Positions 147 through 344 of a stretch of DNA of 650 nt are shown piece after piece (position 1 is the stretch's first letter; the number at the start of each line of letters is the position of its first letter). Source of the DNA: Escherichia coli (GTDB lineage: Bacteria; Pseudomonadota; Gammaproteobacteria; Enterobacterales; Enterobacteriaceae). The notes beneath the pieces are model-generated. The model saw only the letters and a list, made by a program, of their open reading frames with translations, was not told the origin of the DNA and did not search any database. A program made the translations under genes and the position numbers. The DNA is taken from assembly GCF_003334335.1 (NCBI RefSeq), contig NZ_QOWQ01000163.1. One strand, 5' to 3'.

Positions 147-165
147 CAGAGAAAGGAAACGACAG
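147..165. promoter_or_regulatory. cosB R1 element (gpNu1 binding site), nearest to the Nu1 start
   Basis: Plus strand CAGAGAAAGGAAACGACAG with core GGAAACG at 155-161, in the same orientation as R3 and inverted relative to R2. Confidence 0.8.
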
Positions 166-187
166 AGGCCAAAAAGCTCGCTTTCAG

Positions 188-205
188 CACCTGTCGCTTC
201 CTTTC
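188..205. promoter_or_regulatory. cosB R2 element (gpNu1 binding site), inverted relative to R1 and R3, with a variant core
   Basis: Plus strand CACCTGTCGCTTCCTTTC. The core reads CGCTTCC (195-201), i.e. GGAAGCG on the other strand, one mismatch from the GGAAACG core of R1 and R3. Its inverted orientation matches the known arrangement of lambda R2. Confidence 0.75.
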
Positions 206-244
206 TTTTCAGAGGGTATTTTAAATAAAAACATTAAGTTATGA
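206..244. promoter_or_regulatory. AT-rich spacer between R3 and R2; positional equivalent of the IHF site I1 and the bend region of lambda cosB
   Basis: The tract TTTTCAGAGGGTATTTTAAATAAAAACATTAAGTTATG is highly AT-rich with A/T runs and lies between R2 and R3, where lambda carries IHF site I1. I could not identify a clean WATCAANNNNTTR match by eye, so this is assigned by position only. Confidence 0.4.
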
Positions 245-263
245 CGAAGAAGAACGGAAACGC
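245..263. promoter_or_regulatory. cosB R3 element (gpNu1 binding site), nearest to cosN
   Basis: Plus strand CGAAGAAGAACGGAAACGC contains the core GGAAACG (256-262) shared with R1. It corresponds to lambda R3 by position. Confidence 0.8.
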
Positions 264-302
264 CTTAAACCGGAAAATTTTCATAAATAGCGAAAACCCG
301 CG

Positions 303-314
303 AGGTCGCCGCCC
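303..314 (-). other. cosN core: the 12-nt cohesive-end sequence (minus-strand reading GGGCGGCGACCT). The expected terminase nick positions are between 314/315 on one strand and 302/303 on the other
   Basis: Plus strand 303-314 is AGGTCGCCGCCC, the reverse complement of the lambda 5' cohesive end GGGCGGCGACCT. Flanking bases (CGTAACCTGTCGGATC at 315-330, CGCGGGTTTTCG complement at 291-302) match the lambda right-end and left-end junction as I recall it. Confidence 0.9.
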
Positions 315-337
315 CGTAACCTGTCGGATCGCCGGAA

Positions 338-344
338 AGGACCC
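338..344 (-). other. cosQ-like element (minus-strand GGGTCCT), about 24 bp from the cosN nick on the right-arm side
   Basis: Plus strand 338-344 is AGGACCC, the reverse complement of GGGTCCT. This matches the sequence and position I recall for lambda cosQ, which is required for termination of packaging. The assignment is by sequence and position only. Confidence 0.7.

Follow-up and report, generated by a model that had tools for sequence, protein, structure and literature searches.

The window, by which we mean the whole stretch of 650 nucleotides that was analysed, holds at positions 134–371 what is, judged by its sequence, a complete and uncut lambda-type cos of the complex cosB kind, with every sequence feature for which it was tested. 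Very likely the DNA derives from an E. coli chromosome in which a lambdoid prophage of about 20 kb, now decayed, occupies the lambda attachment site. The subsites follow one another on the minus strand in the order cosQ, cosN, I2, R3, I1, R2 and R1. In ascending window coordinates, the features are as follows.

1–125, minus strand: 5′ part of Nu1 (nohD), the gene for the terminase small subunit (TerS); start codon at 125–123; identical to lambda 191–315.
About 150–165, minus strand: R1 of cosB, a predicted TerS-binding repeat, CTGTCGTTTCCTTTCT; identical to lambda 151–166.
About 191–206, plus strand: R2 of cosB, a predicted TerS-binding repeat, inverted relative to R1 and R3, CTGTCGCTTCCTTTCT.
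229–241, plus strand: I1 of cosB, the predicted IHF site between R3 and R2, an exact match to AAACATTAAGTTA.
250–265, minus strand: R3 of cosB, predicted to be the critical TerS-binding repeat, AGGCGTTTCCGTTCTT; identical to lambda 50–65.
265–297, minus strand: I2, the AT-rich, intrinsically bent segment between cosN and cosB; identical to lambda 18–50.
About 298–319, minus strand: cosN, the nicking site, placed by alignment to lambda, with GGGCGGCGACCT at 314–303.
338–344, minus strand: cosQ, the packaging-termination signal, GGGTCCT, aligned to the cosQ annotated in phage 434.
345–513, no strand: non-coding end of the right arm, from cosQ to the ylcI-like gene, delimited by the lambda and 434 alignments.
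514–650, plus strand: 5′ part of a YlcI/YnfO-family (DUF3950) gene; NCBIfam NF041551, E 5.5e-08.

The reverse complement of the window corresponds, collinearly and from end to end, to positions 48167–48502 of the lambda genome (NC_001416) joined directly to positions 1–315. This alignment to the joined lambda ends, which an earlier note on the same DNA had proposed as a check, gives 640 identical columns out of 651 (98.3%) with no rearrangement. Window positions are obtained as 315 minus the lambda position for lambda 1–137, as 316 minus the lambda position from lambda 139 onwards, and as 48817 minus the lambda position in the right arm. The cohesive-end 12-mer GGGCGGCGACCT has a single exact occurrence in the window, at 303–314 on the minus strand, where the chance expectation, allowing up to two mismatches, is 0.03. 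Across this sequence, right-arm DNA (315–650) is contiguous with left-arm DNA (1–314). The exact 12-mer and the lambda alignment confirm the earlier note in its reading that right arm, cosQ, cosN, cosB and Nu1 are contiguous, and the alignment likewise bears out a cos that is uncut and joined, inverted relative to the lambda map, with Nu1 on the minus strand. The interval that had been assigned to cos, 147–344, spans R1 to cosQ almost exactly. Virion DNA had been said to end inside 303–314, in agreement with the nicks expected here at 314/315 on the minus strand and 302/303 on the plus strand, a stagger of 12 nt. A virion end would stop at these nick positions of cosN; the window runs straight through 303–314, and because the sequence is unbroken there, the sampled DNA is not a virion end.

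The limits of 134–371 are those of the functional cos fragment in plasmids of the Feiss laboratory, lambda 48446–182 (PMC4856287). Within them, cosN has the size of about 22 bp described for lambda (PMC4856287) and shows two-fold symmetry in 10 of these 22 bp, and the record of phage DE3 annotates a 'cos site' at the aligned position. The flanks of the cohesive-end sequence are identical to lambda, including the CG dinucleotides at the nick positions, whose conservation has been described (PMC4669245). With the extent of I2 taken from lambda 18–50 (PMC4856287), the spacing from cosN to R3 contains no indel relative to lambda. We placed cosQ by conservation and by the GenBank annotation of phage 434 (OL657227.1), which gives 'cosQ; termination of DNA packaging' at 47046–47052 of 47075. 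The inner edge of cosQ lies 23 bp from the right-end nick position, and the subsite sits inside a block, CGGGTCCTTTCCGG, that does not vary when the window, lambda, 434, phi80 and N15 are aligned. This placement reportedly agrees with that of Wieczorek and Feiss in 2001. A second block invariant in the same five sequences is the left half of cosN, GTTACGGGGCGGCG, and most of I2 is conserved in 434, phi80 and N15 as well. The invariant parts, namely cosQ, left cosN and much of I2, are those that the Feiss laboratory reports to be under selection (PMC4669245).

The cosB part contains three R repeats in the order R3–I1–R2–R1, with R2 inverted and carrying one substitution. The R sequences have been described as 16-bp elements, with R3 at bp 50–65 in lambda (PMC9026076). 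A repeat finder independently recovers 150–161 and 251–262 as a direct repeat (R1/R3) and 150–174 as an inverted repeat of 182–206 over 25 nt (R1/R2). The I1 string AAACATTAAGTTA is the I1 consensus annotated in the phage 434 record OL657227.1 at the aligned position, and a match to WATCAANNNNTTR with one mismatch overlaps it at 224–236. The curated 434 annotations of cosN, R3, I1, R2, R1 and cosQ all fall on the same alignment columns as our placements, within 1 bp.

Of the 651 columns, 11 differ from lambda: nine by a substitution in the right arm, one by A118G in R2, and one by lack of the G found at reference position 138. The right-arm substitutions lie at lambda 48427, 48429, 48430, 48432, 48444, 48459, 48467, 48471 and 48486; eight fall in 345–513, distal to cosQ, and the ninth at window 331, between cosQ and cosN, so that none of the nine is inside a defined cos subsite. 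All nine alleles are those of 434, Turner, PhiR11_1, Chlobot and PhiR34_1, and on this comparison the substitutions are natural polymorphisms of viable phages. The G of reference position 138 (between window 178 and 179) is also absent from the lambda derivative DE3, 434, Turner, PhiR11_1, Chlobot, PhiR34_1 and four E. coli loci. We considered its loss as a feature specific to the window and rejected that reading, every other record compared also lacking the G; by this alignment the exception appears to be NC_001416 itself, the additional G being peculiar to that entry.

In R2, A118 of lambda is replaced by G at window 197, which gives CTGTCGCTTCCTTTCT where lambda has CTGTCGTTTCCTTTCT and falls in the conserved CGTTTCC core. 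The position is equivalent to bp 55 of R3, at the edge of the segment contacted by TerS according to NMR (PMC9026076). R3 is critical and R1 accessory, and mutations in R2 are milder than those in R3 (PMC9026076, PMC4669245). The 61-mer with the variant R2 occurs exactly in 147 of 1650 matching E. coli records. Two of the records that we inspected contain it in prophages whose Nu1 and A are intact; one keeps a set of head genes but has IS insertions and pseudogenised tail genes, and the other has a portal gene split by an insert. Since prophages with Nu1 and A still intact can carry G here, the variant is probably tolerated and, as far as these sequences indicate, not in itself a sign of decay. 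An interpretation of the A-to-G change as a decay mark specific to the cryptic prophage was dropped as a firm claim on account of the same two prophages. As a side observation, in the lambda-like prophage of E. coli 401651 (NZ_CM129040.1, locus L013, 18748–31247) the portal gene is interrupted by some 11 kb of inserted DNA, which encodes an integrase, BRO-N, an Icd-like protein, a primase, SSB, a major capsid protein, a decoration protein and a small terminase subunit. This insert resembles a PICI or satellite-type element that has entered the portal gene of the prophage.

Nu1 starts on one side of cos and the ylcI-like gene on the other. The ATG of Nu1 at window 125 equals lambda 191 and thus lies at the distance expected for the start of a TerS gene, about 190 bp from the left cohesive end; the gene reads away from cos and leaves the window at its left edge. 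RefSeq names it nohD, 'DNA-packaging protein', in records with identical sequence. The Nu1 N-terminal fragment is too short to give an NCBIfam match, and its identity rests on the DNA alignment. At the other end, the YlcI/YnfO-family gene matches NF041551 with 32.7 bits against a cut-off of 30, diverges from Nu1 and leaves the window at its right edge. RefSeq calls it 'ylcI' in identical records, and the homologous gene of 434 is annotated DUF3950. The DNA of 514–650 is 100% identical to lambda 48303–48167, where NC_001416 annotates no gene, unlike RefSeq E. coli genomes and the 434 record.

Two further open reading frames cross cosN, cosB and cosQ, one of 85 aa at 241–498 and one of 39 aa at 125–244, both on the plus strand. 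The longer appears as a 'hypothetical protein' in the records of Turner and PhiR11_1; the shorter is annotated in PhiR11_1, and Turner calls a slightly different short frame over cosB. NCBIfam gave no match for the 85-aa frame, and both frames are probably spurious calls over a protein-binding DNA site. An Rfam scan with E values up to 1 returned three chance matches of 21–22 bits against gathering scores of 70–95, and since these lie so far below threshold we assign no RNA element to the window. Scans for promoters and terminators yielded three matches of promoter type and one of terminator type, which did not clearly exceed shuffled controls. One of these, a sigma-70-like match at 350–377 on the minus strand (GTGACA, 16 nt, TATCAT; 10 of 12 positions, not significant against shuffles), lies immediately beyond cosQ and is directed at cos and Nu1; its −35 hexamer is improved by a T-to-C change relative to lambda at window 373.

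Database occurrence bears directly on the source of the DNA. The earlier note had left open a prophage, a circular or replicating genome, and a cosmid; a prophage, in decayed form, is by far the best supported of these, and a cosmid is unlikely. Those three sources stand as ways to obtain a joined cos, and to them must be added the most trivial one, permuted or circularised phage assemblies and deposits, which the note had left out. Among complete E. coli genomes, 4633 of 5426 match the window, 3304 of them over at least 80% of its length. Identity over all 650 bases is found only in E. coli chromosomes, at least 18 of them, and these strains come from different hosts and continents.

A cosmid, a fosmid-packaging construct or another cloning construct with the lambda cos would likewise carry a joined cos together with parts of Nu1 and the right arm. 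Laboratory cos derives from lambda, however, and the window has ten substitutions relative to lambda; the nine in the right arm are alleles of 434 and wild phages, and R2 differs as well. The best plasmid match reaches 99.5% and is prophage-like, and the full-length plasmid matches are prophage-like fragments or whole lambda genomes rather than vectors. With nine non-lambda right-arm alleles that match 434 and no identical plasmid record, we regard such a construct as a negligible candidate for the source. A side observation from the same searches concerns 'plasmids' of about 48.5 kb, the size of lambda, assigned to the unlikely hosts Paenibacillus, Stenotrophomonas and Salmonella (NZ_CP068597.1, NZ_CP104294.1 and NZ_CP082339.1), which match the lambda cos at 98–99%, as does 'Campylobacter phage CJLB-4' (MW057783.1). 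These records probably represent lambda used as control or spike-in DNA and assembled into circles, and if so, a joined cos can also be a product of assembly.

A functional lambda-like phage, whether an intact inducible prophage or a phage record that is permuted or circular with an internal cos, is a less remote candidate, though still an unlikely one. Of the 167 phage records that match the window, 27 hold at least 80% of it as one internal piece, and the closest, Turner, PhiR11_1 and PhiR68_2, are 99.7% identical; Turner and PhiR11_1, which are viable phages, differ from the window at only 2 of 650 positions. The presence of the R2 G variant in the two prophages with intact Nu1 and A also speaks for such a source. 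Against it, no phage record reaches 100%, window 197 is A in each of the six viable or reference phages compared, and all four of the exact 650-mer records that we inspected contain a decayed element at the lambda attachment site. A phage or an intact prophage with the exact sequence could exist outside the collections searched.

The decayed prophage, which we favour, was characterised in the four chromosomes with identical 650 bases that we opened, FORC_081, BR1220, 23CRST047 and E423. All four carry one decayed lambdoid prophage of roughly 20 kb at the lambda attachment site. The element begins next to ybhC with an integrase and an excisionase, followed further on by a fragment of RecT or exonuclease fused to a fragment of ren. 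Its middle part contains ybcN, ninE, rusA, quuD, an OmpC-like porin, lysis genes, bor, ybcV, ybcW, ylcI, cos and nohD, and it ends with truncated terminase and/or tail-fibre genes, an AraC regulator and IS remnants before ybhB and bioA. The immunity and replication region, including O and P, and all head genes are missing. The deletion that follows cos starts at nucleotide 360 of Nu1 in two strains, at nucleotide 264 of A in one and at nucleotide 1050 of A in one, so that three different end-points are found among the four strains, and cos is spared in all of them. The element retains intact int and xis, the OmpC-like porin, bor, a gene of the TraR/DksA family and the AraC regulator.

The 650 bases of the window contain neither host DNA nor an att site, and the prophage context is therefore inferred from the identical records. 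A check of the surroundings for att sites and host genes, as the earlier note had advised, was accordingly run on FORC_081. The 15-bp sequence GCTTTTTTATACTAA, which we take to be the lambda att core, occurs there at locus positions 6842 and 27120, 20.3 kb apart, exact beside int and with one mismatch beside ybhB, and a single cos lies between the two cores. The host flanks are ybhC on one side and ybhB and bioA on the other, and ybhC and bio are known to flank the insertion site of lambda (PMC9239242). The three further identical records show the same gene context as FORC_081. Circular or concatemeric replicating phage DNA, for instance from an induced culture or a virome, would show the same joined cos, and 650 bases by themselves do not separate it from an integrated prophage; its likelihood is slight, the exact matches being a chromosomal, defective element that lacks O and P and is incapable of phage replication.

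The lambda cos (NC_001416 48446–48502 and 1–182) is identical to the window in the cohesive-end 12-mer, cosN, I2, R3, I1, R1 and cosQ and has the same order, spacing and distance to the Nu1 start; it differs by R2 A118G, the nine right-arm substitutions and G138, which is absent from the window. Phage 434 (OL657227.1) shares the right-arm alleles of the window across cosQ and its flanks but shows several private substitutions in I2, cosB and the spacers, and at the variant R2 position 434, Turner and PhiR11_1 all carry A instead of the G seen in the window. The simple cos of N15 and the cos of PICI/EcCI satellites share cosQ, the left half of cosN and much of I2 with the window (PMC9026076). 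They have a single R element or none and another TerS or Rpp specificity, whereas the window appears, from its repeats, to have the full R3–I1–R2–R1 cosB of lambda specificity.

A parallel for the state of the element is found in the cos–nohD and cos–nohA relics of the cryptic lambdoid prophages DLP12 and Qin in E. coli K-12, in which cos likewise survives in a prophage unable to make heads. The DLP12 neighbourhood (bor, ybcV, ybcW, ylcI, cos, nohD and a truncated terminase) is the same as that of the element, and RefSeq applies the DLP12 gene names to it. The element differs in its location at the lambda attachment site, between ybhC and ybhB, DLP12 presumably lying elsewhere in K-12, and K-12 records match the 61-base R2 region of the window at only 96.7%. 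In 1992, Kotani and colleagues reportedly demonstrated cutting of the K-12 chromosome by lambda terminase at such cos relics. A literature search on nohA/nohB and terminase, within the library available, returned nothing relevant.

The near-identity to lambda suggests how packaging would proceed at this cos, the mechanism and the roles of the subsites being established for lambda (PMC4669245, PMC4856287, PMC9026076). Dimers of TerS (gpNu1) would occupy R3 and R2, with the DNA between them bent by IHF at I1, and the bound TerS would position TerL (gpA) to nick cosN 12 nt apart at 303–314. Terminase would then stay on the cosB end and dock on a prohead, and translocation would run from cosB towards Nu1, with falling window coordinates. 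At the next cos downstream, nicking and termination would require cosQ together with cosN and I2. In a prophage, such a cos would be internal and silent, and in a decayed element it would be a relic. Because the element's own TerL is truncated or absent, cutting at the cos of the decayed element would depend entirely on terminase supplied in trans by a phage with the packaging specificity of lambda, either co-resident or superinfecting. In dilysogen experiments, a helper phage has been documented to package a passive prophage from chromosomal cos sites (PMC4669245).

It is conceivable, though we consider it improbable, that the cos of the decayed prophage at the lambda attachment site has been kept because it is still used, with a helper terminase cutting in trans and packaging towards Nu1 so as to mobilise DNA. 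The three deletion end-points that spare cos and the identity of the 650-mer across hosts and continents are weak hints in this direction. If it were so, the ybhB–bio–uvrB–moa segment would be mobilised, given a second cos one head-full downstream; alternatively, multimers of the excised 20-kb element, which keeps int, xis, cos and Nu1, would be packaged.

An uncut cos of lambda type is textbook biology and already known. The joined form is the normal state in any prophage, in circular or concatemeric DNA of lambda type and in many deposited phage assemblies, and since it is usual in all non-virion DNA as well as in these assemblies, it has little diagnostic power. Its use is limited to annotation, where it establishes how the packaging site is oriented and where it lies, and warns that open reading frames which some phage records place over cosN and cosB are probably spurious. 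For the window itself, the outcome is an identification as cos DNA of lambda specificity, whose most likely source is a cryptic prophage at the lambda attachment site.
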